The position numbers and the translations under genes are program-made. The notes under the pieces were generated by a model. The model did not search any database and was not told where the DNA came from. It worked only from the letters and a program-made list of their open reading frames with translations. Positions 2,028-62,796 of a stretch of 64,000 nucleotides of DNA are shown here, piece by piece. The DNA comes from an uncultured Bacteroidales bacterium. GTDB lineage: Bacteria; Bacteroidota; Bacteroidia; Bacteroidales; VadinHA17. The first letter of the stretch is position 1. Each line of letters starts with the position of its first letter. The stretch is from positions 144,985 through 208,984 of the forward strand of contig CAVVRY010000019.1 of NCBI GenBank assembly GCA_963750735.1, written 5' to 3'.

Positions 2028-2033
2028 GGTTAT

Positions 2034-6837: not shown

Positions 6838-6868
6838 TTTGCTAAAACCTAGAAATAGTCTATATTTG
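6838..6868 (+). promoter_or_regulatory. Bacteroidota-type promoter (-33 TTTG / -7 TATATTTG) for the HU gene
   Basis: TTTG at 6838-6841, a 19-nt spacer, then TATATTTG at 6861-6868. T-rich tracts lie upstream. Confidence 0.5.
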
Positions 6869-6922
6869 TAGAGGTTTGACAATCTAAAAAAATGAATTAC
6901 TAACCCAAAAGTTTTTATTATT

Positions 6923-11054: not shown

Positions 11055-11588
11055 TTGATTGAACGCATGCTAAAACCGAGGAAGAGGAAAAGCTATATCT
11101 ATTTTGTTGATCGGCATCGGTCAATATTTGAAGGCATGTTAGCCAGATTTCGAAATGCTCTGAAATACTCATTGAAGAATTTTTCTGCCTTAGATGGTCT
11201 GATAAATGAATTGAATAGTACCACCCAGGTTATAAACAGGACTCGAGTAGCGATCCTGGTAATTGATCATAAGGAAAATATGGAGGTGATTGAAAATGAA
11301 ATCTCGGGATTTGTTACAACCATAAAAAAAATTGACTCTGAAATGAACCTGATTGTTGTAGCTGGAAAAAATGCTGCAGATACTGTTATTAATGTTAATC
11401 CGCCAGCATCGTATTCATTGGTTCAAAATAATGACAATGCCATTCTGAAAGTTACCAACCTAATTATGGGAATGATTAGCCGCGAAAGCCTTGAGCAGAA
11501 ATACATTTCCGCAAGACGATCTGTAATCCTCTTTAGTTTATTTGTTTTGGTTTCAGCTTTACTGGGTTTATTATTCTTCTTACTATAA
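11055..11588 (+). CDS. Hypothetical protein with a single C-terminal TM helix (tail-anchored topology)
   Basis: 177-aa ORF with a TTG start; an alternative ATG lies a few codons in. C-terminal VILFSLFVLVSALLGLLFFLL. No family recognised. Confidence 0.5.
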   Translation: MIERMLKPRKRKSYIYFVDRHRSIFEGMLARFRNALKYSLKNFSALDGLINELNSTTQVINRTRVAILVIDHKENMEVIENEISGFVTTIKKIDSEMNLIVVAGKNAADTVINVNPPASYSLVQNNDNAILKVTNLIMGMISRESLEQKYISARRSVILFSLFVLVSALLGLLFFLL

Positions 11589-11741
11589 AAATTCCTGCTG
11601 TTTTAAAACTTCTAATTACTGTTTTTGTCTGAATACCAGAAACACAGTAGTGACTATTTGTCAGTTTTATTGAATTGGCATATCCTTTGAAATATTCGTT
11701 TCTGAATTTATAGATGTTTAACTTGAAAATAATAATATAAA

Positions 11742-17431: not shown

Positions 17432-18112
17432 TCATTCCAGACTTTTAATATCTGGAATATATATTTCTTTTCTTTTGAAATCCAGTAGTCCTTCATTTTT
17501 TAAATCATTGAAACTGGTTGTTACCGTTTGTCTTGAAGTGCCTATCAGATCTGCAATGTCTTTATGTGTATAAAAATGGCTAATCCTTATTCCATTATTT
17601 TCCTCTGTTCCATTATTTTCAGATAAATCTTTTATAAACTCAATCAATCGGGTTCTAACATCTTTAAATACCAATGAATCCAACCTCCGCTCTAATTTTC
17701 TTATTCGCAAGCCGATTAATTTGTTGATTGTTAGTGCAAACTTCTTATTTCCTAACATAAGACCCTCAAGTTCATCAATACTCATCTGACATACCTTGGT
17801 CTCGTTCTCTGTTGCCTGAGCAACATCTGTCCGCTTTTCCTCACCCAAAACAACCATCTCACCAAATAAGTCTCCTACGGTTAAAATTCCCTTTACAACT
17901 TCCTCTCCTTGCTCAGTATAATTTAGAACCTTTACTTTACCTTTAGAAATAAGGAAAATATTTTTGGCAGGGTCATCCGTAAAGTATATAAAATCATCTC
18001 TTTTATACGTTCGTACAACATGAGATTCTTCATAATTTCCAAACTTAGTAGGGCACAGGATCTTAAATAAATCTACATCTTCGATATACCAGATATTTTC
18101 CATTATTCTCAA
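17432..18112 (-). CDS. Crp/Fnr-family transcriptional regulator
   Basis: 226 aa with a cNMP-binding beta-barrel (GDLFGEMVVLG) and a C-terminal HTH (IADLIGTSRQTVTTSFNDLKNEG). Confidence 0.85.
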   Translation of the reverse strand: MRIMENIWYIEDVDLFKILCPTKFGNYEESHVVRTYKRDDFIYFTDDPAKNIFLISKGKVKVLNYTEQGEEVVKGILTVGDLFGEMVVLGEEKRTDVAQATENETKVCQMSIDELEGLMLGNKKFALTINKLIGLRIRKLERRLDSLVFKDVRTRLIEFIKDLSENNGTEENNGIRISHFYTHKDIADLIGTSRQTVTTSFNDLKNEGLLDFKRKEIYIPDIKSLE

Positions 18113-18213
18113 CCTTAATTGAATAATTTCGTATCTAAAAATAGAAAAAAATAATTAACTGTATTGAAATTATTATTTTTGTGGTTAGAACAATATAAGA
18201 TATTTTAACAAAA

Positions 18214-19254
18214 TTGAAATTTAAGATAAAAAGAACCCTTGCTTTAGCCTTTATAATTCTCGCTGTTATAGTTGGGTATTTTGGATATACTTCTTATGGG
18301 AAAGTATATGGAACTATTAAAATCCCGGACGATTCAGGTTATTATCTGTTTATTCCAACAGGAACCAACCTTGAGCAACTTACAGATATCCTATTCGAAA
18401 AAGGAATAATAGATGATTACGATGGTTTCCTTTGGTTAGCTAAGAAGAAAAACCTATCGAGTCATTTAAACCCAGGTCGGTATCATCTTAAACAGGGGTT
18501 TAGTAAAAATGATCTGGTAAACTTAATTCGCACTGGAAATCAATCATCAGTAAAGGTTGTATTTAATAACCTCAGGACACCAGATCAACTGGCAGGTGTA
18601 ATAGCCAAACAAATTGAAGTGGATTCCATATCTCTTCAAAATTTGTTTTCTGACGAGGAATATCTACAGGAGAGAAACTGGAATCAGCAAACATTACCCG
18701 CATTATTTATACCTAATACATATGAATTCTACTGGAATACTTCAGCTGAAGGTTTTTTTAACCGGATGATAAAAGAATACGATTCTTTTTGGACTGAGGA
18801 GAAATTGAATAAATCAAAAGCTCTTGGACTTAGCCCGGTAGAAGTGGTCACATTAGCTTCAATCGTTGATGAGGAATCATATCGAGACGATGAACTTCCT
18901 ATAATTGCAGATTTATATTTGAATAGACTTAAGTCACGATACAGACTACAGGCTGATCCAACCATTAAGTTTGCAAAAGGTGATTTTGCCATGACCAGAG
19001 TCTTAAAAAAAGATCTTAATATTGATTCACCCTATAATACATATAAATATTATGGCCTTCCACCCGGACCAATTTCAATACCTTCTATTAATGCTATAAA
19101 CGCAGTATTGAATCCTGAAAGAAATGGCTATTTGTATATGTGTGCAAAAGAAGATTTCTCGGGTTATCATAATTTTGCCAAGACCCTTCAGGAACATAAT
19201 CGCAATGCCAAGAAATATCAGAATGCTTTGAATAAGAGGAGAATATATAAGTAG
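18214..19254 (+). CDS. mltG: Endolytic murein transglycosylase MltG (YceG-like)
   Basis: 346 aa with an N-terminal TM helix and a YceG domain (ASIVDEES, LQADPTIKF, SPYNTYKYYGLPPGPISIP). TTG start. Confidence 0.85.
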   Translation: MKFKIKRTLALAFIILAVIVGYFGYTSYGKVYGTIKIPDDSGYYLFIPTGTNLEQLTDILFEKGIIDDYDGFLWLAKKKNLSSHLNPGRYHLKQGFSKNDLVNLIRTGNQSSVKVVFNNLRTPDQLAGVIAKQIEVDSISLQNLFSDEEYLQERNWNQQTLPALFIPNTYEFYWNTSAEGFFNRMIKEYDSFWTEEKLNKSKALGLSPVEVVTLASIVDEESYRDDELPIIADLYLNRLKSRYRLQADPTIKFAKGDFAMTRVLKKDLNIDSPYNTYKYYGLPPGPISIPSINAINAVLNPERNGYLYMCAKEDFSGYHNFAKTLQEHNRNAKKYQNALNKRRIYK

Positions 19255-29007: not shown

Positions 29008-30258
29008 TTATAAATTCAGTAATCTTTTGTCAGGGTTTCCGGCACCTAACAACATTTGGATTGGATTCTCAATAAATTCCTTAATTGTTACCAGAAAACC
29101 TACTGAATCCTTTCCATCAATTATTCTATGATCATAAGATAATGCCAAATACATTATGGGTCTAATCTCAACATTCCCATTTATTGCCACCGGTCGTTCA
29201 ACAATATTGTGCATTCCTAAAATTGCAGCCTGTGGAGGATTTAAGATTGGGGTTGAAAGCATTGATCCGAATACACCACCGTTTGTAATTGTGAAAGTCC
29301 CTCCGACCATATCTTCAATGCTTATTCTGTTTATTCGTGCTTTGTTGGCAAGATCCATTATTCTTTGTTCAATATCAGCAAGACTCAAGGATTCCGCATT
29401 GCGAATTACCGGAACCATCAACCCCTTTTCTGTCTGCACAGCAATGCCAATGTCTGAATAATTAAACCGAATGAAGTTTTCACCATCCATCATTGAATTA
29501 ACCTGAGGATAGTTTTTTAAAGCTAAACTGGCAGCCTTTGTGAAAAATGACATAAAGCCTAATTTTACTTCATGTTTTTCTTGAAACTGTTTCTGATATG
29601 TTTTTCTTAAACGGATAATTTCGCTTACATCAACTTCATTAAAAGTAGTGAGCATGGCAGTTTCGTTCTTGACCGAAACCAATCGTTCACCGAGCTTTCT
29701 CCGGAGTTGAGACATCCTAACAGTTTCACTATCCCTGTTTGCTATGACTGTTATTCCACTTAAGTTTTCACCTGAAGATTCATTTAAACCCGAAACTGCC
29801 AGTTCAACATCAGTTTTGCTTATTCGTTTTAGGCCTTTAATAATATCCTCAATGGATAACCCTTTCTCATCCATCATTTTGGCTGCCAATGGTGAAATTT
29901 TTATATTATCATTTTTTGTATCCGGACTTTTTATTTCTGGCGTTTCAGCCTTTTTAATCTCAGCTGGTTTATCTGCAATCACTTTTTCTTTCTTTTCCGG
30001 CTGTGCTTTTTTCGTTCCTTTCTTAGATGTGTCAATTTTGCAGGCAACTGATCTTACCGGGATAGCTTCGGCAGTTGGAGCTAAGGAAAAAATTTTGCCA
30101 CTATCTTCTGCTAACAATGGGAGTGTGGCCTTTTCAGATTCAATTTCAGCAATTTCCTGGTCTTTTTCTACGAAATCTCCTTCATTGACAAACCAGGTAG
30201 CAATTTCAACTTCTGTTATTGATTCTCCCGGACTTGGTATCTTAATTTCAATGATCAT
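29008..30258 (-). CDS. sucB: 2-oxoglutarate dehydrogenase E2, dihydrolipoamide succinyltransferase
   Basis: 416 aa. Lipoyl domain ([10 protein letters not shown]), E3-binding domain, and catalytic motif [10 protein letters not shown]. Confidence 0.9.
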
Positions 30259-30315: not shown

Positions 30316-33138
30316 TTATATTGTAAACTTCGCATCAAAATCAAGGTATTCATGAACTTTTAAAATTTCAGTGCGTGATTTTCCATCCACACACTGAAGC
30401 CCACAATATTTATTTTTTAATTCACAGTTGCAGTTCTTGAATACTTTATCTATAATTTCTTTCTGGCCAATTTCATGAAGCCCACTTAATCCGGTTGCCG
30501 GGCTCCCGCTTGCCAAACGAGTTACAGATATAAGATTCACTTCCTTAAATTCCTCTTTCACATATCGCCAGGCACCCATATTTTCCGGTTCCTCCTGAAC
30601 CCAAAGGTGAAGAATGGCATTTTTATATTTACTTAAAATAGTTTTAATCAATTCTGCAGGAAAAGGATACAATTGTTCTAAGCGAATTAGAGCTATATCA
30701 TTGGCCTTCAGTTCCATTTTCCTTTTTAGCAAATCATAGTATATCTTACCGGTGCAGAATACTACTCTTAGAACCTTTTCCACATCAACCTCTGTATCAT
30801 CAATTACCTCCTGAAAACGGTTTGTTGCCAGGTCTTCTATTGTAGAAACGCATAACGGATGTCGCAGCAGACTTTTAGGAGTAAAAATAATCAATGGGAT
30901 CATAAATTTACGGGTCAATTGCCTACGTAAAACATGGAAAAAGCTTGCTGGAGAAGTGGGTTGAACAATTTGCATATTATTCCTTGCAGCACTGGTCAGG
31001 AATCGTTCAATTCGGGCAGAGGAATGCTCTGGTCCCTGGCCTTCAAACCCATGTGGCAGTAACAGTACCAGACCATTCATAAGGCCCCATTTTTCCTCGG
31101 CCGAACTTATATATTGATCAATAATTACCTGAGCAACATTAAAAAAATCACCAAACTGTGCTTCCCAGATGGTTAAGTCCGTTGGTCTGGCAAGGGCATA
31201 CCCATATTCAAAGCCAAGGACACCATACTCAGATAAAGGTGAATTATAAATTGTAAAACTACTCTGGTCCGGAGTAAGATTATTTAGTGGAAAGAATTTT
31301 GCTCCTGTATCTTCTTCAATATATGTGGCATGACGATGTGAAAATGTACCTCTTTCAGAATCTTGTCCACTAATTCGAACGGCATGTCCTTCAGTTAATA
31401 ATGTGGCGTAAGCAAGTAATTCACCTAGTGCCCAGTCAAGTCGATCTTCCTTAATCATCAATTTTCGCTGGTCAATTAGTTTTATCAATTTTCTGAAGAA
31501 CTTTTTTTCTGACGGGAGATGGTTTATTTTATTTGCAAGATCAATTAATACTTCCTTTTTCACACTTGTCCTGGGACACTTCACCAGGTCATTGCGTTTG
31601 GGGTGTTTGAATCCTAGCCAGTCTTCAGCCAGAAACTGCTTAATAACTACTTCATCGGTTCCCTGAGATTTTTTCAATTTCTCTTCCAATATACTATCAA
31701 AGTCTTTTTGCGATTGTATGATATCTTCTTTGGAATAAATGCCTTCCTGGACCAGCTTCGTAGCATAAATATCTCTAGGAGATGGATGATTTGAAATGGC
31801 TTTATAAAGGAGAGGCTGTGTAAATCGAGGTTCATCACCCTCATTATGACCATATTTCCTGTAGCACAAAATGTCAATGAAAACATCAGATTTAAATTTC
31901 TGACGAAACTCCATGCTTAATAATATAGTGAAAATAAGAGCTTCAACATCATCACCATTTACATGGAAAATAGGTGCTTTTGTAACCTTGCCAATATCAG
32001 TACAATACGTACTTGATCTTGCCTCAAGGTAATTAGTAGTAAATCCCACCTGATTATTAATAACTAGGTGAATGGTTCCGCCAGTTTTATAACCTTTCAG
32101 AAGTGACATTTGGAGAACCTCATAAACCACTCCCTGTGATGCAATAGCAGCATCACCATGAATAAGGATTGGTGCCAGTTTTGAGGAATCACCGCCATAT
32201 TTTTTATCAATCTTGGCTCTTGCCAATCCTTCTACTACAGCATCAACTGCTTCAAGATGCGAAGGATTTGGAGCAAGATTAAGCTTCAATTTTTCACCTT
32301 TTGCGTTGGTTATTGTATTGCTATAACCCAAGTGATACTTTACATCTCCAAGTGAGATATTACTTTGATAAAATTTCCCATTAAATTCATTAAAAATATC
32401 CTCAAATGGTTTCTCAAGGATATTAGCAAGTACATTTAACCTGCCTCTATGCGACATTCCAATAATAAACTCCTCAATACCTAATCCTGCTCCTCTTTCA
32501 ATCACAGCACCTAAAGCGGGGATAAGCGCTTCAGCTCCTTCCAGAGAAAACCGTTTCTGCCCAACAAATTTTTTATGAATAAAATTTTCAAAGCCAACGG
32601 ATTGATTTAGGAGTAAGTAAATGTTTTTCTTTTCATCAATGCTAAAAGAAGGAGTGTTCTGTACCGGTTCCATTTTGCTTTGAAGCCATGAAATAACTTC
32701 AGGATTGCGCATAAAACCATATTCAGCACCTATGGAATTACAATATGTTCGCTCAAGGTGATCAACAATCTCAATAAGTGGGGCAGGACCAATTCCAATG
32801 TTTTTACCAGCCTGAAATACAGTATTTAGGTCTTTCTCCGAGAGACCGAAATTTTCCAGGTCAAGAGTGGGAGTATATTCTCTGCGTGCCCTAACTGGAT
32901 TTGTTTTAGTAAATAAGTGACCTCGACGTCTGTAGCCTTCAATGAGGTTAATTACTTTAAATTCGTTATCAAGGACTTTCTCACCTGGTTTGGTATTAAA
33001 GTTTTTCCTGGCGAAATCAAAACCTTCGAAAAAATTACTCCAACTTTCATCAATACTTTGAGGATCATTGAGATACTGATTGTAGAGACTCTCAAATGAT
33101 GAAGCATCTCCCTGTCCGAGAAAGTCGAATTTCTTCAT
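30316..33138 (-). CDS. sucA: 2-oxoglutarate dehydrogenase E1 component
   Basis: 940 aa. The N-terminus FLGQGDASSFESLYNQYLNDP and TPP-binding regions are typical of SucA. It lies directly upstream of sucB. Confidence 0.95.
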   Translation of the reverse strand: MKKFDFLGQGDASSFESLYNQYLNDPQSIDESWSNFFEGFDFARKNFNTKPGEKVLDNEFKVINLIEGYRRRGHLFTKTNPVRARREYTPTLDLENFGLSEKDLNTVFQAGKNIGIGPAPLIEIVDHLERTYCNSIGAEYGFMRNPEVISWLQSKMEPVQNTPSFSIDEKKNIYLLLNQSVGFENFIHKKFVGQKRFSLEGAEALIPALGAVIERGAGLGIEEFIIGMSHRGRLNVLANILEKPFEDIFNEFNGKFYQSNISLGDVKYHLGYSNTITNAKGEKLKLNLAPNPSHLEAVDAVVEGLARAKIDKKYGGDSSKLAPILIHGDAAIASQGVVYEVLQMSLLKGYKTGGTIHLVINNQVGFTTNYLEARSSTYCTDIGKVTKAPIFHVNGDDVEALIFTILLSMEFRQKFKSDVFIDILCYRKYGHNEGDEPRFTQPLLYKAISNHPSPRDIYATKLVQEGIYSKEDIIQSQKDFDSILEEKLKKSQGTDEVVIKQFLAEDWLGFKHPKRNDLVKCPRTSVKKEVLIDLANKINHLPSEKKFFRKLIKLIDQRKLMIKEDRLDWALGELLAYATLLTEGHAVRISGQDSERGTFSHRHATYIEEDTGAKFFPLNNLTPDQSSFTIYNSPLSEYGVLGFEYGYALARPTDLTIWEAQFGDFFNVAQVIIDQYISSAEEKWGLMNGLVLLLPHGFEGQGPEHSSARIERFLTSAARNNMQIVQPTSPASFFHVLRRQLTRKFMIPLIIFTPKSLLRHPLCVSTIEDLATNRFQEVIDDTEVDVEKVLRVVFCTGKIYYDLLKRKMELKANDIALIRLEQLYPFPAELIKTILSKYKNAILHLWVQEEPENMGAWRYVKEEFKEVNLISVTRLASGSPATGLSGLHEIGQKEIIDKVFKNCNCELKNKYCGLQCVDGKSRTEILKVHEYLDFDAKFTI

Positions 33139-33274
33139 GGGCCCTTAAATAATAAGGAAAAAGTTATTTATAATCGTTCAAAATTAAAAAACTTTTTGCA
33201 TTAACCGGCTGGAAAAGCAACAAAAAGCTGATTTAGAGAACTAATTTTTAAAATAGATAAGGCAATTATTGATT

Positions 33275-34274
33275 TTAACTTATTTCACTAAAGTATTTCA
33301 TGAATTGAAGTCGTTCATAAACCTCAGGATTACTAGCTTTATCCTGACTTAATTTACCTTTAAACTGGTCGATATAATTGAAGCCTTTTTTCTCCATCCA
33401 GGTGTGTATGGTATTTAGCATTTTGGGGAGGTAGTCGTTGCCATTTATGTATAAAGCAGAGGCCACCTGCACAGCTGATGCACCTGCCAGTATTTGTTTT
33501 ATTACCGCTTCCCCATCATGCACTCCTGTGGAGGCAGCAAGGTCAATATCTATCCTTTGTGAAAGCATGGCAATCCATCGCAAAGAATTATACATTTCAG
33601 CTGGTGTGCTAAAGACATCTGCCACTGTTATTTTGATATTATCAATATCAATATTAGGGCTGGAGAAACGGTTAAATAAAACTACTGCATCTGCTCCTTC
33701 AACCTCAAGGTTCATAACAACCTGGCCAAGGTTAGAGAAATACGGGCTGATCTTTACAGAGACAGGAATGGTTATTTCCTTTTTAATTTTACGCACAATT
33801 TCATAATACTTTTCCTGAATTTCATTGGCATTGTTTTCAAAATGGAAAGGCATTAGAAAAATATTTAATTCGAGAGCATCTGCACCTGCCTGTTGAATTT
33901 GCTTTGCAAAACCAGTCCATTCGGCTGATGATATACAGTTTATACTGGCAATTACAGGTATGTTTAAATCTCTTTTTACCTGGGCAATTAAATTCAGGTA
34001 ATTGCCCAATTCTCTTTCCTTAATGTGCAGATCAATATAATCAAGTGTTTCGGAATGTTCAGAGTATATAAAGGTGTTTTTGCGAGCTTTTTCAAGTTTA
34101 TGCTGAGCTTCCAGCATAATTTGTTCTTCAAACAACGATTTCAAGTACCACTGCTCCAGCTCCATTTCTATCGTGCTCCTGTATTTTTGAAAATGAATCA
34201 GTTAACCCTGAGCTGGCGACAATAATTGGATTTCTAAGGGTTAAACCCATATATTTTGTGCTTATTTCGGCCAT
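33275..34274 (-). pseudogene. Dihydroorotate-dehydrogenase-like FMN TIM-barrel protein, interrupted by a +1 frame change (or a sequencing error)
   Basis: My translation from the ATG at 34274 gives MAEISTKYMGLTLRNPIIVASSGLTDSFSKIQEHDRNGAGAVVL, then a stop at 34128-34130. The ORF-track frame (33275..34165) continues KSLFEEQIMLEA... The span is 1000 nt = 333 codons + 1 nt. The switch is around 34139-34145 (GTA CTT G AAA TCG). Confidence 0.75.
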
Positions 34275-34297
34275 AACAAAAGAGTTTAAGTTTATGA

Positions 34298-35785
34298 TTA
34301 ATTAGATTTAACTTTCTCTGAAATATATTTGTGTATACCTGCAGCCGCTCTTCTTCCATCACCCATAGCAAGAATGACTGTAGCTCCGCCTCTTACAATA
34401 TCCCCACCCGCAAATATATCAGGAATTGAGGATTGCATGGTCTCAGGATCCACTTCAATGGTGTGCCAGTCGCTCACCTTTAAATCAGGCAGGGCAGTTG
34501 GTATCAATGGATTTGGAGAAACTCCAACACTTACTATAACTGTATCTACATCAATATCAAATTCAGAATTTTCAATAACAATAGGTCTTCGGCGGCCTGA
34601 GGAATCAGGTTCACCCAATTTCATTTTCTGGACCCGCATTTTGTTTACACGACCCTCTTTATCTGCAAAATATTCTACTGGATTATGAAGATTCATGAAC
34701 TCAATACCTTCTTCAATGGCGTGCTTAACCTCTTCAACCCTTGCAGGCATCTCCTCCCTCGACCTTCTATAGATAATCATGGCCCTTTCCGCCCCAAGTC
34801 TTTTTGCCGTCCGAACTGAATCCATTGCAGTATTACCACCTCCAATTACAGCTACCTTATTGCCACTAAATACTGGTGTATCATACTTTTTATCAGAGGC
34901 ATTCATTAAATTGACACGGGTCAGATACTCATTTGATGAAAAGATATTGTTGTAGTTTTCACCTGGGATATTCATGAAATTTGGCAATCCTGCTCCACTT
35001 CCAACAAAGAAAGCTTGAAAACCCAATTCCTTTAGGTCATCTATTGAAACTGTTTTTCCAATAATGAAATTTTTCTTGAATTTAACACCCATCTTTTTCA
35101 TATTATCAATTTCAACATCGACAACACTATTGGGCAAACGGAACTCAGGTATACCGTATTTCAAAACCCCTCCAATTTCATGCAAAGCTTCAAAGACAGT
35201 AACGTCATATCCCCATTTTGCCAGGTCCCCTGCACATGCAAGTCCAGCTGGTCCAGATCCAATAATTGCCACTTTAGTTCCAATAGGTGCTGAAACCTCA
35301 GGAATAGACATTTTTCCACTTCCCTGTTCAAAATCTGCTGCAAATCTTTCCAGGTGTCCAATAGCAACCGGGTCCTTTTTAAGGGATATAGTATAGAAAC
35401 ATTTTTCCTCACATTGTTTTTCCTGAGGGCAAACTCGTCCACAAACTGCAGGTAGTGTATTTGTCTCTTTAAGAACTTTTGCAGCTTCAAGGAAATCTTC
35501 CTGCTCAATTCGTTTGATGAATTTGGGAATATTAATTCCGACGGGACAGCCAGATATACATGTAGGATTAGCACAATCAAGGCAACGGCTAGCCTCAATA
35601 ATTGCCTGTTCTGGAACTAATCCCTTATTTACTTCCTCGGAATTTTTATTTCTGAGATTAGGATCGGCCTCAGGCATTGTTACTCTCTGTTTTTGTGTCC
35701 GATCCTTCGCTTTTAAAGATTTTCGGAGCTCAACTCGCCATTCCTGGCTGCGTTCTTCTTTTAAATATGCAGTAATATCTTCCAT
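34298..35785 (-). CDS. GltD-like NADPH-dependent FAD/Fe-S oxidoreductase (NfnB / SudA / glutamate synthase small-chain family)
   Basis: Cys clusters CLDCANPTCISGCP and CGRVCPQEKQCEEKC. Dinucleotide motifs IIGSGPAGLACAG and VIGGGNTAMD. The preferred start is the ATG at 35785 (MEDITAY), 1 nt after the upstream stop. Confidence 0.8.
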   Translation of the reverse strand: MEDITAYLKEERSQEWRVELRKSLKAKDRTQKQRVTMPEADPNLRNKNSEEVNKGLVPEQAIIEASRCLDCANPTCISGCPVGINIPKFIKRIEQEDFLEAAKVLKETNTLPAVCGRVCPQEKQCEEKCFYTISLKKDPVAIGHLERFAADFEQGSGKMSIPEVSAPIGTKVAIIGSGPAGLACAGDLAKWGYDVTVFEALHEIGGVLKYGIPEFRLPNSVVDVEIDNMKKMGVKFKKNFIIGKTVSIDDLKELGFQAFFVGSGAGLPNFMNIPGENYNNIFSSNEYLTRVNLMNASDKKYDTPVFSGNKVAVIGGGNTAMDSVRTAKRLGAERAMIIYRRSREEMPARVEEVKHAIEEGIEFMNLHNPVEYFADKEGRVNKMRVQKMKLGEPDSSGRRRPIVIENSEFDIDVDTVIVSVGVSPNPLIPTALPDLKVSDWHTIEVDPETMQSSIPDIFAGGDIVRGGATVILAMGDGRRAAAGIHKYISEKVKSN

Positions 35786-35786
35786 A

Positions 35787-36614
35787 TTAAACCAAGGTTT
35801 TAGTATATTCCTCAAAAGCTTCTATTTCCTGATCCTTATAAGCACCAAGGCGTTGAAGCATTTGATCAAAATCAACTTTATGTGCATCGAATTCAGGACC
35901 GTCTACACATACAAAGCATGTTTTACCATCGACTGTTACACGACAGGCACCGCACATTCCTGTACCATCAACCATGATTGTATTTAAACTCGCTATAGTT
36001 GGGATATTGTATTTTTTTGTTGTCAGGGCTGCGAATTTCATCATGATAGCAGGTCCGATTACCACCGACATATCAACTTTTTCTCGTTTAATGACCTCTT
36101 CCATACCATGGGTTACAAGGCCTTTTTGACCATAGGACCCATCATCAGTCATTATTATTAGTTCATCTGAGTGTTCACGCATCTGATCTTCTAGGATTAT
36201 TAGATCCTTATTTCGAGCAGCCAGGACAGTTATAATTCTATTTCCAGCCTTTTTAAGTCCTTCCACAATTGGTAAAAGCGGCGCTACGCCCACTCCACCA
36301 CCAGCGCATAATACGGTCCCCACTTTTTCTATATGTGTGGGAAGACCCATAGGACCAGCAACATCTTCTAGAAAATCACCTACATTTAGTTCTGTAAGCT
36401 TGTAAGATGAAACGCCTACTCTTTGAATGATAAGTGTAATGGTTCCATTTATCTCATCTGCACCTGCGATTGTAAGTGGTATTCTTTCACCCTTTTCGTC
36501 AACCCTGATTATGACAAAATGCCCTGGTTTTCTTGATTTTGCAATTTCAGGAGCCTCCAATACCAATTTAATCACATTCTCTGAGAAAAATTCTTTTTCT
36601 ACAATTTTATTCAT
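35787..36614 (-). CDS. PyrK-like FAD/NAD(P)-binding [2Fe-2S] protein (NfnA / SudB family)
   Basis: 275 aa with a ferredoxin-reductase-type fold (PGHFVIIRV, RIPLTIA, CAGGGVGVAPL). C-terminal cluster motif GTGMCGACRVTVDGKTCFVCVDGP. Confidence 0.8.
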   Translation of the reverse strand: MNKIVEKEFFSENVIKLVLEAPEIAKSRKPGHFVIIRVDEKGERIPLTIAGADEINGTITLIIQRVGVSSYKLTELNVGDFLEDVAGPMGLPTHIEKVGTVLCAGGGVGVAPLLPIVEGLKKAGNRIITVLAARNKDLIILEDQMREHSDELIIMTDDGSYGQKGLVTHGMEEVIKREKVDMSVVIGPAIMMKFAALTTKKYNIPTIASLNTIMVDGTGMCGACRVTVDGKTCFVCVDGPEFDAHKVDFDQMLQRLGAYKDQEIEAFEEYTKTLV

Positions 36615-36863
36615 CTCATGAATGGTTTATAAGTGTTAAGGAAACAAAAATATAAATTTAAAAATACCATGTAAAAATTTTTGCACAATGCTGTTTAATA
36701 ACATATCAAAGGTATTAAAAGTAGAGTATACCTTCCCAGATAAAACCTTTTTTAAATAATTTAAGAATATTATTAACAAATTATCTGATTTTTGGGCAAT
36801 TCATAAATTGTATTTAGTTTTTTAGGTCTTAAATTACTTTCTTTGCAAAAAATATTTATTCAA

Positions 36864-37988
36864 ATGGTTATAGGAATATTAAGTGAAGCAAACGCTGATA
36901 ACAGGGTAGCATTGTTGCCTGAAAGTGTAAGTGTACTCATTAAAAAGAAGGTTAATGTCCTTGTAGAGAAAAATGCCGGGTTGAAGGCTTTTGCCTCTGA
37001 TAAGGATTATGAAGAAGCTGGTGCTAAGGTCGAATCTCGTGTTAAGATCCTTGAAGAGTCTGATCTTTTATTAAAGGTTAATCCTTTGGAAATAGTTGAG
37101 GCATCTAAATTGAAGGGTAAAAAGGTACTGATTTCTGTAATGAATCCATTTTTCAATACTGAGCTTATAAAGGTGTTTAAGGAAAACGGCGTAACCACCT
37201 TTGGAATGGATGTTATTCCCAGAACCTCAAGGGCTCAGGCTATGGATGTTCTATCATCGATGGCAACTGTGGCGGGGTATAAGGCAGTACTTGATGCTGC
37301 TGGTAAACTACCTAACTTTTTCCCAATGTTTATGTCGGCAGCTGGTACAATACGCCCTTCAAAGGTTTTGATATTGGGTGCAGGAGTAGCAGGACTGCAA
37401 GCTGTGGCAACATCACGTAAGTTGGGTGCAGTTGTTGAAGTTTTTGATGTAAGGGCAGCTGTAAAAGAAGAGGTGATGAGCCTTGGAGCTAAATTCGTTG
37501 AAGTTGAGGGTGCCGTTGATGAGGCATCTGCAGGTGGGTATGCTGTTGAGCAGACCGAGGAATTTAAAAAACGGCAGGCTCAGGCTATACATGATCATGC
37601 TTTAGGTTCAAATGTTGTTATCTGCACTGCTCAAATACCTGGAAGAAAAGCTCCTCTTTTAATTCACAAAGCTACCGTTGAAGAAATGAAACCGGGAACA
37701 GTAATAATTGACCTGGCGGCATCAACAGGTGGTAACTGTGAGCTGACAAAAAATGGAGAAGTTGTTGAGCACAATGGTGTTAGTATTGTTGGTAATTCGA
37801 ATTATCCTTCTGAAATGCCAAATGATGCAAGCCGCATGTTTGGTAAAAACTTAATGAATTTTCTGAATCTTTTAGTTGATGAAGAAGGAAATATGAATCT
37901 GAATTTTGAGGATGATATTGTGTTGGGAACTTGTATAACCCATAACAATGAAATCATTAATGAGAGAATTAAAGAATTTATTAAATAA
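36864..37988 (+). CDS. pntAA: NAD(P) transhydrogenase alpha subunit, part 1 (dI)
   Basis: Alanine-dehydrogenase/PNT fold with VLILGAGVAGLQA. The ATG at 36864 is preferred over the TTG at 36843. Confidence 0.9.
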   Translation: MVIGILSEANADNRVALLPESVSVLIKKKVNVLVEKNAGLKAFASDKDYEEAGAKVESRVKILEESDLLLKVNPLEIVEASKLKGKKVLISVMNPFFNTELIKVFKENGVTTFGMDVIPRTSRAQAMDVLSSMATVAGYKAVLDAAGKLPNFFPMFMSAAGTIRPSKVLILGAGVAGLQAVATSRKLGAVVEVFDVRAAVKEEVMSLGAKFVEVEGAVDEASAGGYAVEQTEEFKKRQAQAIHDHALGSNVVICTAQIPGRKAPLLIHKATVEEMKPGTVIIDLAASTGGNCELTKNGEVVEHNGVSIVGNSNYPSEMPNDASRMFGKNLMNFLNLLVDEEGNMNLNFEDDIVLGTCITHNNEIINERIKEFIK

Positions 37989-37999
37989 TAATAAAGATC

Positions 38000-38311
38000 A
38001 TGGAAACTGTTTTAAAGGCTTTTTATGAGAATAAGGATTTTATTTTCATTATAATTCTATCAATTTTTCTGGGTGTTGAGGTGATATCCAATGTGCCTGC
38101 GGTTTTGCATACCCCACTGATGTCAGGGGCTAATGCAATTAGCGGGGTTATAATAATTGGAGGTATAATACTTGTGGGCCATGCTGATCTGACTCAAATA
38201 TCAGTTAACCTGGTATTGGGAATTTTTGCAGTATTGTTTGGCACTCTTAATGTTGCGGGTGGTTTTGTTGTTACTGACAGAATGCTTGAGATGTTTAAAA
38301 AGAAGAAATAA
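38000..38311 (+). CDS. pntAB: NAD(P) transhydrogenase alpha subunit, part 2 (membrane)
   Basis: 103 aa with three hydrophobic helices, located between pntAA and pntB. Confidence 0.85.
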   Translation: METVLKAFYENKDFIFIIILSIFLGVEVISNVPAVLHTPLMSGANAISGVIIIGGIILVGHADLTQISVNLVLGIFAVLFGTLNVAGGFVVTDRMLEMFKKKK

Positions 38312-38397
38312 AACAATTACTCAAGGAAGGAATTGAATATTTCTACAGGTAAATGTTGAATAGAATTTTTTGCTGAAATAAATTAAAAGAAATAAAT

Positions 38398-39819
38398 ATG
38401 AATAATATAGTAGCGGGTTTAGGAGTATCATATGCAACTGTACTTCTTGAAATTAGTTATTTATTAGCCGCAGTCTTTTTTGTTGTTGGACTTAAATTTC
38501 AGAGCCATCCTCAATCTGCCCGAAAAGGTAATATCTGGGCAGCGAGTGGAATGGTTCTGGCTATGTTAACTACGCTGTTTTTGCACAAAAATGCACAGGG
38601 TGAGGGAATCTCCCTTGTCAATGGAATTGTAGTAGTATTAGCTATTGGTGTAGCTGCCGTTCTTGGTACAATAATAGCACGACGTGTTAAAATGACTGCA
38701 ATGCCTGAACTGGTTTCATTTTTTAATGCTACCGGTGGTGGGGCCTCTGCTCTAGTTGCATTAATTGAGTTTTCAAATCCTGGTAATTCTTCAACCCTTG
38801 TAACCCTGCTTGGCCTGGTAATCGGCTCTGTTGCCTTTAGTGGTAGTTTAATTGCCTATGGTAAGCTCGATGGTAAAGTTGGAGACATATTTGCTAAATG
38901 GACAACCTATTTGAACCTGTTTTTGCTTGCTGTAGTAATAGCATTTATTGTGTATATAATATTTGGTGGAGCAAGCTTTGAAATGCAAAAAACGCTGGTT
39001 CTTGTTTTGCTTGGAATATCTCTAATTTATGGTGTAATGTTTGTAATGCCAATCGGTGGAGCAGACATGCCTGTTGTAATCTCATTGTTAAATTCATTAA
39101 CAGGGATAGCAGCAGCAATGGGAGGTTTTATTTATCACAACATGGCAATGATTCTTGGAGGAATCCTTGTCGGTGCAGCTGGTACTATTTTGACATTTTT
39201 GATGTGTAAGGCAATGAACAGATCCTTGTTTAATGTAATTGTAGGTGCTTTTGGAGGAGGGGGAGCCAGTATTGATAGGGATCAGGGTACCATAAAGGAA
39301 ATTACATTAAGTGATGCAAGTATATTATTAAGTTATTCACAAAAAGTAGTTATCGTACCTGGATATGGGCTGGCTGTTGCTCAGGCACAGCATATTTGCC
39401 ATGAACTGGATACTCTTTTAGAAGAAAAGGGAGTGGAAGTTAAGTATGCTATTCATCCAGTAGCAGGTAGAATGCCAGGCCATATGAATGTGCTACTTGC
39501 AGAAGCCGACGTTCCGTATGAAAAACTAATTGAAATGGATGATATTAATCCATCCTTACCTAATACTGATGTGGTTATTGTAATCGGGGCGAATGATGTG
39601 GTCAATCCGGCAGCTCTGGATGATCCGTCAAGCCCTATTTATGGAATGCCAATTATTAAAACGCATGAAGCCAAAAATATTATTGTAATGAAAAGGGGAA
39701 TGGGCAAGGGATATGCAGGTATTGAGAATTTCTTGTTTTTCAATGATAAAACAAGAATGCTTTTTGGTAATGCGAAAGATTCATTACAGAAACTTGTAAC
39801 TGAAATTAATTCATTGTAA
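38398..39819 (+). CDS. pntB: NAD(P) transhydrogenase beta subunit
   Basis: 473 aa with an N-terminal polytopic domain and a C-terminal dIII domain (VPGYGLAVAQAQH, GANDVVNP). Confidence 0.9.
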   Translation: MNNIVAGLGVSYATVLLEISYLLAAVFFVVGLKFQSHPQSARKGNIWAASGMVLAMLTTLFLHKNAQGEGISLVNGIVVVLAIGVAAVLGTIIARRVKMTAMPELVSFFNATGGGASALVALIEFSNPGNSSTLVTLLGLVIGSVAFSGSLIAYGKLDGKVGDIFAKWTTYLNLFLLAVVIAFIVYIIFGGASFEMQKTLVLVLLGISLIYGVMFVMPIGGADMPVVISLLNSLTGIAAAMGGFIYHNMAMILGGILVGAAGTILTFLMCKAMNRSLFNVIVGAFGGGGASIDRDQGTIKEITLSDASILLSYSQKVVIVPGYGLAVAQAQHICHELDTLLEEKGVEVKYAIHPVAGRMPGHMNVLLAEADVPYEKLIEMDDINPSLPNTDVVIVIGANDVVNPAALDDPSSPIYGMPIIKTHEAKNIIVMKRGMGKGYAGIENFLFFNDKTRMLFGNAKDSLQKLVTEINSL

Positions 39820-40769: not shown

Positions 40770-41787
40770 ATGAAACGAATAAGCTTTATTCGAAATGGAA
40801 GTTTATTGTTAGCTTCTTTTTTTCTTCCCTCTTATTATAGGAGGCCGAAGTTAAAAATTTCTACAGTAAAAGGGTTCGTAGATGCAGGAAAAGTTGGAGT
40901 CTGTCTTGAACATGAGCATATTCTCGTTGATTTTATTGGTGCTGAGAAGTATGATCCAACCAGATGGGATAGGGCTCAGGTAGTTGAAAAAGTAATCCCT
41001 TACCTTATGGAATTGAAGAAAAATGGTTGTGCAACACTTATGGAATGTACACCTGAATATTTAGGAAGAGATGTGAATATTATTGCATGAATTGTCTGAG
41101 AAAACTGGATTGAATATTTTAACAAACACTGGCTATTATGGTGCAGGAAACAATAAGTACATTCCAGAAAAGGTCTTTAATATAAGTGCAAAACAGTTAG
41201 CTGAAATTTGGATAAAGGAATATGAAGAGGGGATACAGGGCACCTCCATTAAGCCCGGATTTATAAAGATTGGAGTGAATCCGGGGCCATTGAGTGATTT
41301 TCATGAGAAACTTGTTAGGTCAGCCGGTCTTACTCATTTAAGTACTGGATTAACAATAACTTCTCACACAGGCCCTGCAGTAACTGCATTTAGTGAAATT
41401 GATGTTTTAAAGAAAATAGGTGTTCATCCTTCCGCTTTTATTTGGATCCATGCCCAGAATGAAAATGAATGGGTGACATACGTTAAAGCAGCAAAAATGG
41501 GGGCGTGGATTAGTCTGGATGGTTTGAATGATGAAAATGTGAATGAATACATAGAACGCCTATTCTATATGAAAGACAATGGGCTTCTTGAAAAAACACT
41601 TGTTTCACATGATGCTGGTTGGTACGATCCTGGGAAGCCAGAAGGCGGCACTTTTAGGAACTTCAACACTTTATTTGAGAAATTAATTCCCCAATTAAAA
41701 AGTAAAGGATTTACTCAAGAAGAAATTAATCAAATAATGATTAGTAATCCTGTCAATGCTTTTTCTATTCGTGTTAGAAAGATCTGA
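40770..41787 (+). pseudogene. Phosphotriesterase-related (PTE/Php family, amidohydrolase superfamily) protein, interrupted by a +1 frame change
   Basis: ORF 40770..41090 carries a signal-like N-terminus and the H-x-H metal motif GVCLEHEHILVDF, and ends ..EYLGRDVNIIA*. ORF 41083..41787 continues (L)HELSEKTGLNILTNTGYYG... The frames differ by +1 and the span is 1018 nt = 339 codons + 1. The switch is near 41076-41082. Confidence 0.8.
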
Positions 41788-41803
41788 AAATAGCTACCCT
41801 CTT

Positions 41804-43163
41804 TTAAAAGGTGAGAATTTTTTCGACATTCCCGTTTCTAAGGAATCTTTTTACAATAGATTGAATATCTCGGTTATCCTTATAGGGTCTGATACAGTCG
41901 TGTATTACTTCTGTGCTAAATGAAGCTTCATCTCCATCAAAATAACCGAATCCTAAATATTTCCCATTTTCAATTTTTATAACTGATCTTTCATTCAATT
42001 CTCTGCCCTTGTCTATTATTAAGAAATTTTGATATTCGTATTCAAATACCTTTTTAGCAGAAGTTGCTCTTATATTATATGTTTCTGTTGATTCTTTCCC
42101 GACACAGGCTCCATGACAAATTCCTATTTGATGCTGGAAACATGCTCCTGAAGAGTCGTATAATCCAGCTAATTTCTGACATAAATTGTGATCACTAGAT
42201 ATCTGGGTCAGAAAGTCTTTGGCTTTTTCCAGTGGAAGAAAAACTGGCCATCGGTAATGTGTCTTTTACCTTGCCTATTCTGAAGCATAAGTAATCGTCA
42301 TCGTTGTAAAATGAAAAAATTCCAATGCAGGTAGTTTCTCTTCTTTGTGCGCGGTTATAGACTGGTTTGTTTTTTTTTATCTCATCCGACTCTAATAAAT
42401 ATGCTATAAGTTCACTCCCTGTAATTTCATAGCTTATTTCTGCAATTCGGTCCCGCATTTCAATTTTTTTTCTGGTAGACCTATTCGCAAAGTGATTTAA
42501 AACCCTATGTCTTATATTTTTACTTTTTCCAACATAAAGAAGTTCCTGATTCTCATCATAGAAATAATATACACCCGTGTCTTCCGGTAGATTTTTTACT
42601 TGCTGGCCGTCAAGATTGGGATGAAGGTCTGATAAAGCAGGGTTTACAAAGAGCTTATTATCCAATCCATGATCCAGCCCAAGAAGTATTTCAAATAATT
42701 TTACGGTAGCTAAGGCATCTCCAGCAGCTCTGTGTCTGTTGTTAATTTTAATATCTACTTCTTTACATAGCTTACCGAGGCTATAAGATCTAAGTCCTGG
42801 AATAAGTCTCCGGCTTAATTTGACTGTATCCAATACATCACGCTTATAAATATAACCCAGTCGCTTGAATTCTTCCCTGATGAAGTTGTAATCGAAATTA
42901 GCATTATGGGCAACAAATATTTGATCCTGAGTGATTTCTACAATTTTTTTAGCTACTTCGTAAAACCTTGGTGCATCCTCAACCATTTCATTACTAATAC
43001 CTGTTAACCCAGTAATAAAATAAGGAATAGACTTTTCAGGGTTAATCAGGGTAGAGTACTCATTAATAATTTTTACCCCATCATGGATGTATATTGCGAT
43101 TTCGGTAATTTTATCACTTTGTGGTCTTCCACCAGTTGTTTCTATGTCGATTATCGCATACAA
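41804..43163 (-). pseudogene. DnaQ-like 3'-5' exonuclease fused to a GIY-YIG nuclease domain, interrupted by a +1 frame change
   Basis: The N-terminal ORF (42195..43163) has exonuclease motifs IIDIETTGG and FVAHNANFDYNF, plus GIY-YIG (GVYYFYDENQELLYVGKSKNIRHRV). My translation of the +1 frame from about 42240 gives EKAKDFLTQISSDHNLCQKLAGLYDSSGACFQHQIGICHGACVGKE..., running into ORF 41804..41998. The span is 1360 nt = 453 codons + 1. Confidence 0.8.
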
Positions 43164-49802: not shown

Positions 49803-50034
49803 GTATATTAATTTCTTTATTAGAACTGCTGCACATTTATATGCAATCGCCTCTCAAATTAACTATCGAATATAAAACAGATAATGTTGATAAATTTCTT
49901 TTCATGGGTAAAATAATCAAAAAAAACTTATCAAACTTCCTAAAATCTCAAAAAAACGGCCTGATTAGTACATAAATAGGATCTGAATTATTTGATTTAT
50001 TAGAAATTTACTAATTTAGACACTTGATTATACC

Positions 50035-50079
50035 AACCCGCTGTACATGCTTCTATTCCGTATAAGCAGAAAGCGGGTT
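50035..50079 (+). other. Composite stem-loop in the long intergenic region upstream of the first DUF1080 gene
   Basis: Outer stem aacccgct (50035-50042) / agcgggtt (50072-50079) and inner stem tgctt (50048-50052) / aagca (50064-50068), followed by tatttag. Confidence 0.35.
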
Positions 50080-50158
50080 TATTTAGAAAGTGATGTTGAA
50101 TTTATGATAATAATTTAACTGCCATTTTTAATAAATTATTTGCTAAAACCATTTAACA

Positions 50159-50936
50159 ATGAAAGTCAGAAATCTTTTGGTCATTCTAACCACTCTTTTT
50201 TTTAGTTTCGCAATCCTGGTAGATTGTGCACATAAAAAGAATACCTCGGCTGGAAGTGATGAATCAAATTCAGATCCTGATCTCAATGCCCAGTGAGATT
50301 AATCAATTAACGAATGCTGAAAAGGAAGATGGTTGGGTATTGTTATTTGATGGTATGAGTTTAGATGGATGGCGAGATTTTAAAGGAGAAACGGTTGGAG
50401 ATGGTTGGACTGTTAAAGATGGGAATCTGATTGCGCTTGGCAAGGGTGGTGATCTAGGTGGAGACATAATATCTGTTGACCAGTATGAGAGTTTTATTTT
50501 GAAATTAGATTGGAAGATATCTGAGGGTGGAAACAGTGGTGTATTTTTTCATGTATTGGAGGAAGAGTATCCAACGGTATATGCAACCGGTCCTGAGTAT
50601 CAGCTTATTGACGATATTGGGTTTCCTGAAAAACTTGAAGATTGGCAGGTGAGTGGAGCAAATTATGCCATGCATCCTCCCGTAAATGTGAAGCTTAAAC
50701 CGGCCGGAGAATGGAATAGCACAGAAATAGTGGTTGATGGACCTCATGTAACACATTTTCTGAATGGAAATAAGGTAGTTGAGTATGAAATGTGGACAGA
50801 TGAATGGACTGAATTGGTAAATAGTGGGAAATGGGATGATTATCCCGATTACGGATTGGCTAAGAAAGGCCACCTTGGTTTGCAGGATCACGGAAACAAA
50901 ATCTGGTTTCGAAATATTAAAATAAAAGAATTGTAG
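50159..50936 (+). pseudogene. DUF1080 (3-keto-disaccharide hydrolase-like) exported protein, interrupted by a +1 frame change
   Basis: My translation from the ATG at 50159 gives MKVRNLLVILTTLFFSFAILVDCAHKKNTSAGSDESNSDPDLNAQ, then a stop at 50294-50296. The ORF-track frame (50226..50936) continues ..EINQLTNAEKEDGWVLLFDG..GGNSGVFFHV..GLQDHGNKIWFRNIKIKEL. The span is 778 nt = 259 codons + 1. Confidence 0.75.
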
Positions 50937-61790: not shown

Positions 61791-62571
61791 ATGAGACTAA
61801 ATAAACTAATTGTTATATCAGGCTTTGCAGCTTTAGCCTTAGTTGCAGGCTGTGCATCTGATTCAAAGAAGTCAGGAGAAGGCAAAGAAGATACGTTGGA
61901 AGCCCTGGAAGCTGAAACGGCAGAAGCCTCCGATAGTTGGATTCTTTTATTTGATGGAAAAACCTCAGATGGTTGGCGTGGATATAGAAGTGAATCTTTT
62001 CCTTCCGCTTGGGAGATTGTTGATGGTACTCTTCATATTCAGGGTTCTGGACGTGGAGAAGCTGGCGCAGCTGAGGGAGGTGATATCCTTTATGATAAGA
62101 AATTCAGTAATTTTCATTTTACTTTTGAATGGAAAGTAGCTGAAGGAGGCAATTCCGGTGTTTTTTATCTAGGTCAGGAAAGTGATGAACTTGACCATAT
62201 TTGGAAAACAGCACCTGAATATCAGATTTTGGATAATGAGAGACATTTAGATGCAGAATTAGGTAAAGATGGAAATAGAAAATCAGCATCCTTGTATGAT
62301 ATTTACCCTGCCAAACCACAAAATCCAACCCGCTGGGGAGTGGAATACAGGTGAGATCATGGTCTACAACGGAACCGTAATTCATAAGCAAAATGGGGAA
62401 ACTGTGGTAGAGTATCATCTATGGACTCCAAAATGGTATGAAGATGTGGCTGCAAGCAAATTTCCTGAGTTGAATGAAACTTGGGCCGAAGTAGCTAATG
62501 AAGGTTATATTGGACTTCAGGATCATGGTGATGATGTATGGTTTAGGAATTTAAAAGTCAAGGAACTATAG
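61791..62571 (+). pseudogene. DUF1080 (3-keto-disaccharide hydrolase-like) lipoprotein, interrupted by a +1 frame change
   Basis: ORF 61791..62354 has a lipoprotein signal (ALALVAGC), WILLFDGKTSDGWRGY, GGNSGVFYLG and ..SASLYDIYPAKPQNP.. ORF 62269..62571 continues ..PAGEWNTGEIMV..GLQDHGDDVWFRNLKVKEL. The span is 781 nt = 260 codons + 1. The switch is within 62317-62334. Confidence 0.8.
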
Positions 62572-62602
62572 TTGGCCATATAAGGAATGATTTAATCTCA
62601 TT

Positions 62603-62641
62603 AATAATGGAAAGGCATTTTTAGTCTTTCCATTATTTTTT
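62603..62641 (+). terminator. Rho-independent terminator after the third DUF1080 gene
   Basis: Perfect 12-bp stem aataatggaaag (62603-62614) / ctttccattatt (62626-62637) with an 11-nt loop and a trailing T-run. Confidence 0.7.
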
Positions 62642-62796
62642 AACAAATAAATTATTGCTTGAAGAGGTAAGAGACTAGGTTTAGATATTAAATATTATAT
62701 GGCCTGAAGCATATCTGTATTATAATTAATATGGATCTTCTTTCTTATCATTTTTCGGTATAAAAACGCGTGGTTGGGTAAGCAAGATTAATATCT

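Follow-up and report, generated by a model that had tools for sequence, protein, structure and literature searches.

A canonical nfnAB pair followed by a dihydroorotate dehydrogenase-like gene of a family lacking the catalytic residue in an uncultured Bacteroidales bacterium

Within a 64,000-nucleotide stretch of DNA from an uncultured Bacteroidales bacterium of the VadinHA17 lineage (GenBank assembly GCA_963750735.1, contig CAVVRY010000019.1, positions 144,985 to 208,984; hereafter the window), we identified three co-oriented genes that, on their sequences, comprise a canonical nfnAB pair and then a gene resembling those of dihydroorotate dehydrogenases (DHODs). NfnA and NfnB are the subunits of NADH-dependent ferredoxin:NADP+ oxidoreductase (Nfn). 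The third protein is assigned by its sequence to the catalogued NF005741/PRK07565 family, which has no assigned function. Members of this family appear to retain a flavin mononucleotide (FMN) site and to have lost the acid–base chemistry of DHOD and of dihydropyrimidine dehydrogenase (DPD). The three genes almost certainly share a transcript, and 'NfnAB with a co-transcribed partner', one of two alternatives that an original prediction from the sequence had offered for this operon, fits the data best. From its genomic linkage we consider, on balance, that the DHOD-like protein is functionally redox-coupled to GltD-type iron–sulfur flavoproteins, possibly within a physical complex.

Identity of the nfnAB genes

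The product of the first gene, which contains DGTGMCGACRVTVDGKTCFVCVDGPEF, matches the small subunit of Pyrococcus furiosus NfnI (Protein Data Bank (PDB) 5jca_S; expect value (E) 9.1e-91) and Thermotoga maritima NfnA (4ylf_A; 2.9e-83), whereas its match to PyrK of class 1B DHOD (1ep1_B) reaches an E of only 1e-20. The segment MVDGTGMCGACRV...CVDGPEF has the same letters in 5jca_S and 4ylf_A. Its [2Fe-2S] motif is formed by one aspartate and three cysteines (D-G-T-G-M-C-G-A-C ... C-x-D-G-P), with Asp as the first ligand where PyrK has Cys, a distinction between the Nfn small subunit and PyrK that has been reported previously (PMC12221290).

The product of the second gene has two cysteine clusters (CLDCANPTCISGCPV; AVCGRVCPQEKQCEEKC) and two GxGxxG dinucleotide motifs, and is matched by Fer4_20 and Pyr_redox_2 of Pfam. 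Over residues 29–490 it aligns with T. maritima NfnB (4ylf_B; E 1.9e-145) and with the large subunit of P. furiosus NfnI (5jca_L; 2.9e-144), the cluster, flavin adenine dinucleotide (FAD) and NADPH motifs lining up. The two products tile the fused-Nfn profile NF009414 end to end, as positions 1–270 (NfnA) and 271–751 (NfnB). The genes are adjacent and co-oriented, a single base (35786) separating the nfnA stop from the nfnB ATG (Table 1). Sequence similarities in the analysis, with E values of 1e-91 to 1e-244, lie far beyond chance.

Judged on these features, the first two genes encode NfnA and NfnB proper rather than generic PyrK and GltD proteins, with all of the sequence hallmarks of the flavin-based electron-bifurcating NADH-dependent ferredoxin:NADP+ oxidoreductase. 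The original prediction had called them PyrK-like and GltD-like, with a PyrK-type C-terminal cluster motif in the first; the motif is that of Nfn, with its Asp ligand, and not the four-Cys motif of PyrK. Its three minus-strand genes, the spacings of 1 nt and 23 nt and the motifs that it quoted are all found in the sequence. Known NfnAB is matched along the whole of each subunit (E 1e-83 to 1e-145); the Asp plus three Cys [2Fe-2S] motif is the same, the C..C and CPQE.QCE..C cluster motifs are shared, as are those for FAD and NADPH, and the genes are tightly coupled, here 1 nt apart. In contrast to this locus, characterized Nfn enzymes have two subunits or a fused one, and a review of Nfn (PMC6405883) describes no third, FMN-type subunit and makes no mention of dihydroorotate or of any third subunit. 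The NfnB of the window also differs from characterized Nfn by an N-terminal extension of about 30 residues, equivalent to the linker in the fused Nfn of Bacteroidota.

Table 1 Features of the nfnAB and DHOD-like locus and its flanks (window coordinates)
Feature	Coordinates	Strand	Length or extent	Basis
nfnA, small subunit	35787..36614	-	275 aa	NF004862, 397 bits
nfnB, large GltD-like subunit (2 x [4Fe-4S], FAD, NADPH site)	34298..35785	-	495 aa from ATG at 35785	TIGR01316, 561 bits
Spacer, nfnB stop to DHOD-like ATG (34274)	34275..34297	-	23 nt	Read directly
DHOD-like gene, 5' segment (MAEISTKYMGLTLRNPIIVASSGLT...GAGAVVL)	34143..34274	-	Codons 1-44	Aligns to residues 1-44 of intact relatives
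Extra base, G on coding strand	34142..34142	-	1 nt, placement +/-3 nt	DNA alignment with L001 and L002
DHOD-like gene, 3' segment	33275..34141	-	Codons 45-332 + stop	K45-S-L-F-E-E, ELNIFLMPF, VKISP, LFNRF and FMN-phosphate motifs
pntAA, pntAB, pntB, membrane NAD(P) transhydrogenase	36864..39819	+		Divergent from nfnA; NF006942 388 bits, NF006974 432 bits
sucA, 2-oxoglutarate dehydrogenase E1	30316..33138	-		Downstream, same strand as DHOD-like gene
sucB, 2-oxoglutarate dehydrogenase E2	29008..30258	-		Downstream, same strand

A DHOD-like family without the catalytic cysteine

In the window the DHOD-like gene is interrupted by one extra base, and profile results are given for the joined 332-amino-acid product after removal of that base. 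This protein scores 422 bits against NF005741/PRK07565, 'dihydroorotate dehydrogenase-like protein' (cut-off of 303), with residues 1–331 covering positions 1–329 of the 335 in the profile. The full-length match above the cut-off and the K-S-x-F-E-E, ELN and FNR motifs are those of a member, and we found no difference that would set it apart from the family. By comparison, the scores for the PyrD equivalogs fall below their cut-offs (NF005574, 120 versus 269 bits; TIGR01037, 118 versus 270), as does that for PreA (100 versus 335 bits). The PreA match ends at position 321 of the 422 in the profile, and the C-terminal ferredoxin domain is absent from the 332-amino-acid protein, as the original prediction had stated.

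In class 1 DHODs the catalytic Cys lies in an N-x-S-C-P-N active-site loop, as Cys130 in DHOD-A and Cys135 in DHOD-B. In the residue alignment, Leu140 stands where Lactococcus lactis DHOD-B PyrD has Cys135 and pig DPD has Cys671, and Phe139 stands opposite the preceding Ser, the catalytic loop reading ELNIFLMPF where it is aligned with ELNISCPNV. Tyr79 occupies the position of DPD Asn609, and counterparts of Asn67 and Asn132 are missing. Across 135 representatives of the family, the position of the catalytic Cys is held by I, V, Y, L, F or R, and there is no conserved Cys or Ser in the catalytic loop. The loss of the catalytic Cys that had been read from this single sequence is thus a trait of the family. 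Residues that are invariant or nearly so among the same representatives are P16, A41, S46, F48, E49, E50, N137, K174, F200, N201, W233, G250, G264 and R321; the region of S46, F48, E49 and E50, with a conserved K45, forms the K-S-x-F-E-E signature of the family. Conservation of K45, K174 and G250/G264-A is that expected of an FMN-binding barrel. In sum, the FMN-binding Lys, the phosphate motifs and two Asn are kept, whereas the catalytic Cys/Ser, two more substrate-binding Asn and the Fe–S domain are lost.

The fold was examined with an AlphaFold2 model of P0001, an intact relative that is 98% identical to the window protein. The model is a confident barrel (pLDDT of 90.6, pTM of 0.88) with a family-specific two-helix insert at residues 49–102, part of which has lower confidence. 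The nearest structures in a fold search were the FMN domain of DPD and class 1B and 1A DHODs, at template modelling (TM) scores of about 0.7 (0.70 for the DPD domain). No solved structure of a family member was found in sequence and fold searches of the PDB, in which the best sequence match was DHOD-B (E 5.5e-14). On sequence and model together, the third protein is predicted to be an FMN-type TIM barrel of the class 1 DHOD/DPD fold. The family comprises 664 clusters at 50% identity below an E of 1e-30, a count from an unfiltered search of representatives that may include true PyrD relatives. It is presumably the cd04739 (DHOD_like) entry of CDD, described as possibly inactive.

Because the catalytic Cys/Ser, two substrate-binding Asn and any Fe–S domain are lost, the protein as predicted cannot be a dihydroorotate or dihydropyrimidine dehydrogenase, in agreement with the earlier suggestion that it does not act on dihydroorotate or a pyrimidine; the low PyrD and PreA scores point the same way. 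The fold and the retained FMN-binding residues might be taken to mean that it is still such an enzyme with a catalytic base elsewhere, and Joint Genome Institute pipelines do label homologues 'dihydroorotate dehydrogenase (fumarate)', but this is barely credible in view of those scores, the loop and the missing Asn counterparts. It is further contradicted by a metagenomic contig, L128, in which a canonical class 1B pair (1655-3416), with a PyrD loop of EVNISCPN and a PyrK with four Cys ligands, lies 3.3 kb upstream of the DHOD-like gene (6001-6975). Because canonical PyrD and PyrK coexist with it there, the DHOD-like gene encodes an additional protein rather than the pyrimidine enzyme.

The original prediction had treated the third gene as one open reading frame (ORF), which it is not in the window. 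From the ATG at 34274 the frame runs for just 48 codons to a stop at 34128, and the remainder of the protein (33275..34165) lies in another frame; GLTLRNPIIVASSGLT and ALELNIFLMPFHF are both present in the window, and the motifs on which the prediction relied came from both frames. We aligned the DNA with L001, the protein of which is 98% identical, and with L002, a Bacteroidales metagenome-assembled genome (MAG) at 87–89% identity. The window reads GTG GTA CTT [G] AAA TCG where the relatives read GTG GTC CTA AAA TCA, a single 1-nt insertion at about 34142 that splits the gene into 44 and 288 codons. Without the extra base the protein has 332 amino acids and is 98% identical to P0001, which is itself intact at 332 amino acids; the closest database relatives have the same length. 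The single intact frame of about 320–335 amino acids that is a trait of NF005741/PRK07565 is therefore missing from the window copy.

We regard the break as an error of sequencing or assembly in the consensus, or else as a very recent inactivating mutation, because the gene is intact, at 332 amino acids, in relatives at 98% and 89% identity, because the window branch has accumulated 26 synonymous versus 4 nonsynonymous codon changes since its split from L001 with no second lesion in the 999 nt of the gene, and because the rest of the window is densely filled with intact ORFs and shows no further broken genes. The insertion could be real, the third gene here being a genuine recent pseudogene and the operon acting as plain nfnAB: the site is not within a homopolymer run, and the lack of any other broken gene in 64 kb implies that the assembly is not generally indel-prone. 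The excess of synonymous changes, the single lesion and the intact relatives speak against a pseudogene, a single consensus error being equally possible, and we consider it doubtful. Programmed +1 frameshifting was rejected: the insertion is missing from the relatives, CTT G AAA lies in neither a slippery nor a stop-codon context, and in the 0 frame a stop is reached four codons downstream. Separately, tblastn matches to nfnA, sucA, sucB or pntB fall into overlapping pieces in L013, L036, L041 and L019; this suggests frameshifts in those assemblies, and that single-base indels are not rare in such data.

Linkage to two kinds of GltD-type protein

We examined the gene neighbourhoods of relatives in genomes taken at one per species, with P0001 as the seed (80 loci), and in a second scan of metagenomes with the family alignment as the query (80 loci). 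The nfnAB genes adjoin the DHOD-like gene in 60 loci, in which the DHOD-like protein ranges from 46% to 98% identity. At 51% identity or more, nfnA–nfnB, or a remnant of the pair at a contig end, lies directly beside the DHOD-like gene in all loci except L031 and L053, and among loci of the main clade with enough flanking sequence only L031 lacks it. The pair is usually upstream and on the same strand. In L038, L041, L045 and L050, nfnBA is inverted yet still adjacent. In 57 same-strand relatives, nfnB and the DHOD-like gene are separated by a median of 39 nt (range of -8 to 395). Linked loci occur in Bacteroidales, Rikenellaceae, Lentimicrobiaceae, Marinilabiliaceae, Draconibacterium and MAGs labelled Chlorobiota; the flanks around the trio vary, with pntAB and/or sucAB adjoining in only some loci. 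Residues specific to the Nfn-linked clade are limited to S74, T76 and H83, all in the helical insert, and are too few to infer an interface.

Outside this clade the arrangement is uncommon, nfnAB standing beside only 11 of the 80 loci in the metagenome scan. A UPGMA tree of 161 loci groups the linked genes into a main cluster (56) and a small cluster (5), with about three parsimony state changes. The linkage is thus real and persistent, but confined to essentially one Bacteroidota clade and a small second cluster. No nfnAB was found within 6 kb of the DHOD-like gene in the Bacteroides clade (45–47% identity), the loci of which (L056-L081; for example, L066:4825-6978) have the order DUF4494–yggS–DHOD-like on one strand, yggS and the DHOD-like gene lying a median of 28 nt apart. 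Around several more distant members (P0181, P0164, P0289, P0269 and P0271) we found no partner gene, the contigs being short or the neighbours unrelated. Linkage to NfnAB-like pairs, which the original prediction had made a check on its proposal, is accordingly borne out in the main clade, the relatives of which carry nfnAB beside the gene, and fails for most family members, including all of Bacteroides, in which the gene is solitary.

Two side observations concern these neighbourhoods. The Bacteroides loci have a convergent PhoH/PIN gene downstream of the DHOD-like gene and no redox partner nearby; yggS belongs to a pyridoxal phosphate homeostasis family. One Bacteroidota contig, L088, carries two DHOD-like paralogues (6001-6993 and 11560-12573): the Nfn-linked one is 52% identical to the window protein, and the solitary one, beside a ComEC-like gene, is 37% identical and scores 372 bits against NF005741.

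A second association came from the metagenomic locus L132 (253-3285), in which an NF005741 member (413 bits) follows the gene for a 607-amino-acid protein that consists of a NuoI-like 2x[4Fe-4S] domain fused to a GltD-like domain (NuoI~GltD; NF010590, 882 bits; 32% identical to NfnB). The upstream sequence of L132 is too short to judge operon membership. We looked up four homologues of this fusion protein at 71–85% identity, including some from Draconibacterium and Saprospiraceae genomes. In all four (L171-L174), an NF005741-type gene lies immediately downstream of the gene for a NuoI~GltD protein of about 600 amino acids, at gaps of -4, 125, 32 and 2 nt. Here the pair closes an operon of NuoL/Mrp-like, NuoH, NuoB, NuoC and NuoD homologues (L171:1-7774, L172:1-7912, L173:1-6795 and L174:1-5511; the NuoL/Mrp-like protein has 1041-1042 amino acids in L171 and L172), beyond the DHOD-like end of which the genes differ from locus to locus.

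Such Mbx-like operons, with a gltD-like flavoprotein replacing or fused to NuoI, were described in 2015 by Degli Esposti, in a report that does not mention the DHOD-like gene (PMC4758237), and our literature searches found no functional study that links Ehr/Mbx with DHOD. The shared feature, a DHOD-like family member that follows a GltD-family subunit, suggests a partner relationship in common with the trio in the window. The Mbx-like system nevertheless differs from the window locus in being membrane-bound and without NfnA, and the window contains no such operon. The idea of a module of GltD-like and DHOD-like proteins, raised in the original prediction, gains independent support from these operons.

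Possible roles of the DHOD-like protein

Redox coupling to GltD-type proteins, which we favour, would most likely take the form of electron exchange between the FMN of the DHOD-like protein and the [4Fe-4S] chain of NfnB, the electrons then serving a donor or acceptor other than dihydroorotate or a pyrimidine. Exchange between the FMN and a GltD-type [4Fe-4S] chain is the most economical proposal, because a barrel without an Fe–S centre recurs beside two different GltD-family proteins. The logic would be that of GltD to FMN in DPD, PreTA and glutamate synthase, and of PyrK to PyrD in class 1B DHOD. In Nfn structures the [2Fe-2S] face of NfnA is already taken by NfnB. Because NfnB covers that face, the ferredoxin-side distal cluster of NfnB would be the likelier contact for the FMN.

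Known systems resemble the trio in part. As in class 1B DHOD (PyrK and PyrD; L. lactis 1EP1), the genes for a PyrK-family subunit and for an FMN TIM barrel with the PyrD fold lie side by side, and the barrel has no Fe–S centre of its own, so an outside cluster could feed its FMN. Unlike in class 1B DHOD, Cys135 is replaced by Leu, the orotate-binding Asn are partly lost, the PyrD score is well under its cut-off, and the PyrK-like protein is NfnA (with its Asp ligand), which is already partnered by NfnB. As in pig DPD (1H7W) and PreT/PreA, a GltD-like unit with NADPH, FAD and 2x[4Fe-4S] sites accompanies a DHOD-like FMN barrel, and the fold search ranked the DPD FMN domain first; the DHOD-like protein differs from DPD and PreA in lacking the Cys671 equivalent and the C-terminal 2x[4Fe-4S] domain. 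A pan-genome study of Propionibacterium reports that a 'DHOD-like' gene and a gene for a GltD-like protein with an additional ferredoxin site share a transcript with pyruvate:ferredoxin oxidoreductase, and postulates a bifurcating complex (PMC7650540). The likeness lies in the co-transcription of GltD-type and DHOD-like genes, there with an enzyme that produces ferredoxin; in contrast to the window, the pair belongs to a different phylum, and its DHOD-like gene is only a possible member of NF005741.

A bolder version of the proposal, which we put forward tentatively, is that the family is a new FMN subunit that docks on GltD-type proteins, forming a three-subunit Nfn here and, with NuoI~GltD, the electron-input arm of a membrane-bound Mbx/complex-I-like complex in other Bacteroidota. 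Low-potential [4Fe-4S] electrons would be collected on the FMN to reduce a substrate other than dihydroorotate or a pyrimidine, or would be taken from it.

Several observations weigh against coupling. The chief one is that most family members are solitary in unrelated contexts, and are thus apparently functional without an adjacent partner. The Nfn linkage is limited to the two clusters and about three changes in the tree, so much of it may be inherited gene order. The gap from nfnB of up to 395 nt and the four divergent loci show that strict translational coupling is absent. If the frameshift in the window is real, this strain retains nfnAB without the third gene. Finally, the sequence suggests no candidate substrate.

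The first and third of these points would be explained if the DHOD-like protein were a self-sufficient FMN oxidoreductase, merely co-regulated with genes that balance NAD(P)H (nfnAB, pntAB and sucAB) and exchanging no electrons with NfnAB. It could work by ping-pong catalysis at a single flavin site, in the manner of DHOD 1A or the dihydrouridine synthases, NAD(P)H and a small acceptor being possible reactants. The absence of an Fe–S domain from the protein and the cluster of pyridine-nucleotide enzymes around it in the window are in keeping with this. We judge it rather unlikely, as it leaves unexplained why a DHOD-like gene directly follows NuoI~GltD at the end of Mbx-like operons in four of four look-ups, once with a 4-nt overlap, and why adjacency to nfnAB outlasts inversion and the turnover of flanking genes.

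It is more improbable still that the adjacency has no functional meaning and reflects gene order inherited in one Bacteroidota lineage: the confinement to one main and one small cluster and the clade member L031 without nfnAB upstream would fit, but the trio is kept from 98% down to 46% identity, even after inversion, as the genes around it (pntAB, sucAB and others) turn over, and in another clade the linked partner is a different GltD-family protein.

Around the trio in the window lie the transhydrogenase and 2-oxoglutarate dehydrogenase genes of Table 1 (sucAB score 1172 bits against NF006914 and 473 bits against NF004309), and the block of pntAB, nfnAB–DHOD-like and sucAB recurs in L002, L003, L044, L054 and L084. 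In principle, and as speculation, PntAB and NfnAB together could couple proton-motive force to ferredoxin reduction. A scan of 32900-37000 for sigma-70 promoters and terminators found no terminator between the three genes; its counts did not differ from those in shuffled sequences, and Bacteroidota promoters lie outside the models of the scan. The window is densely coding except for stretches of 400-680 nt without an ORF of at least 70 amino acids (6242-6922, 18104-18765, 41091-42194, 49803-50258 and 62355-62796).

NfnAB is already known, and the DHOD-like family, although catalogued, is unstudied in the literature that we searched, which yielded no functional study under NF005741, PRK07565 or cd04739. 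The family is large and widely misnamed 'dihydroorotate dehydrogenase (fumarate)'. Even if the proposed coupling is wrong, the annotation of the locus is corrected: genes 1 and 2 are nfnAB rather than PyrK and GltD genes, and gene 3, frameshifted here, encodes no DHOD. The nfnAB–DHOD-like trio and the Mbx-like pair of NuoI~GltD and DHOD-like protein look like undescribed variants of a design that joins a GltD/PyrK module to an FMN barrel. Recurrence beside GltD-type modules (NfnAB and NuoI~GltD), together with the lost catalytic residue, provides a concrete and testable lead: the family may supply electron-bifurcating or energy-converting complexes of Bacteroidota with an FMN subunit, on the side of either the substrate or the acceptor. 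If so, a third branch would be added to Nfn and the input arm of Mbx-like complexes would be defined, and docking on GltD-type proteins would define a new class of DPD-like or bifurcating reductase.

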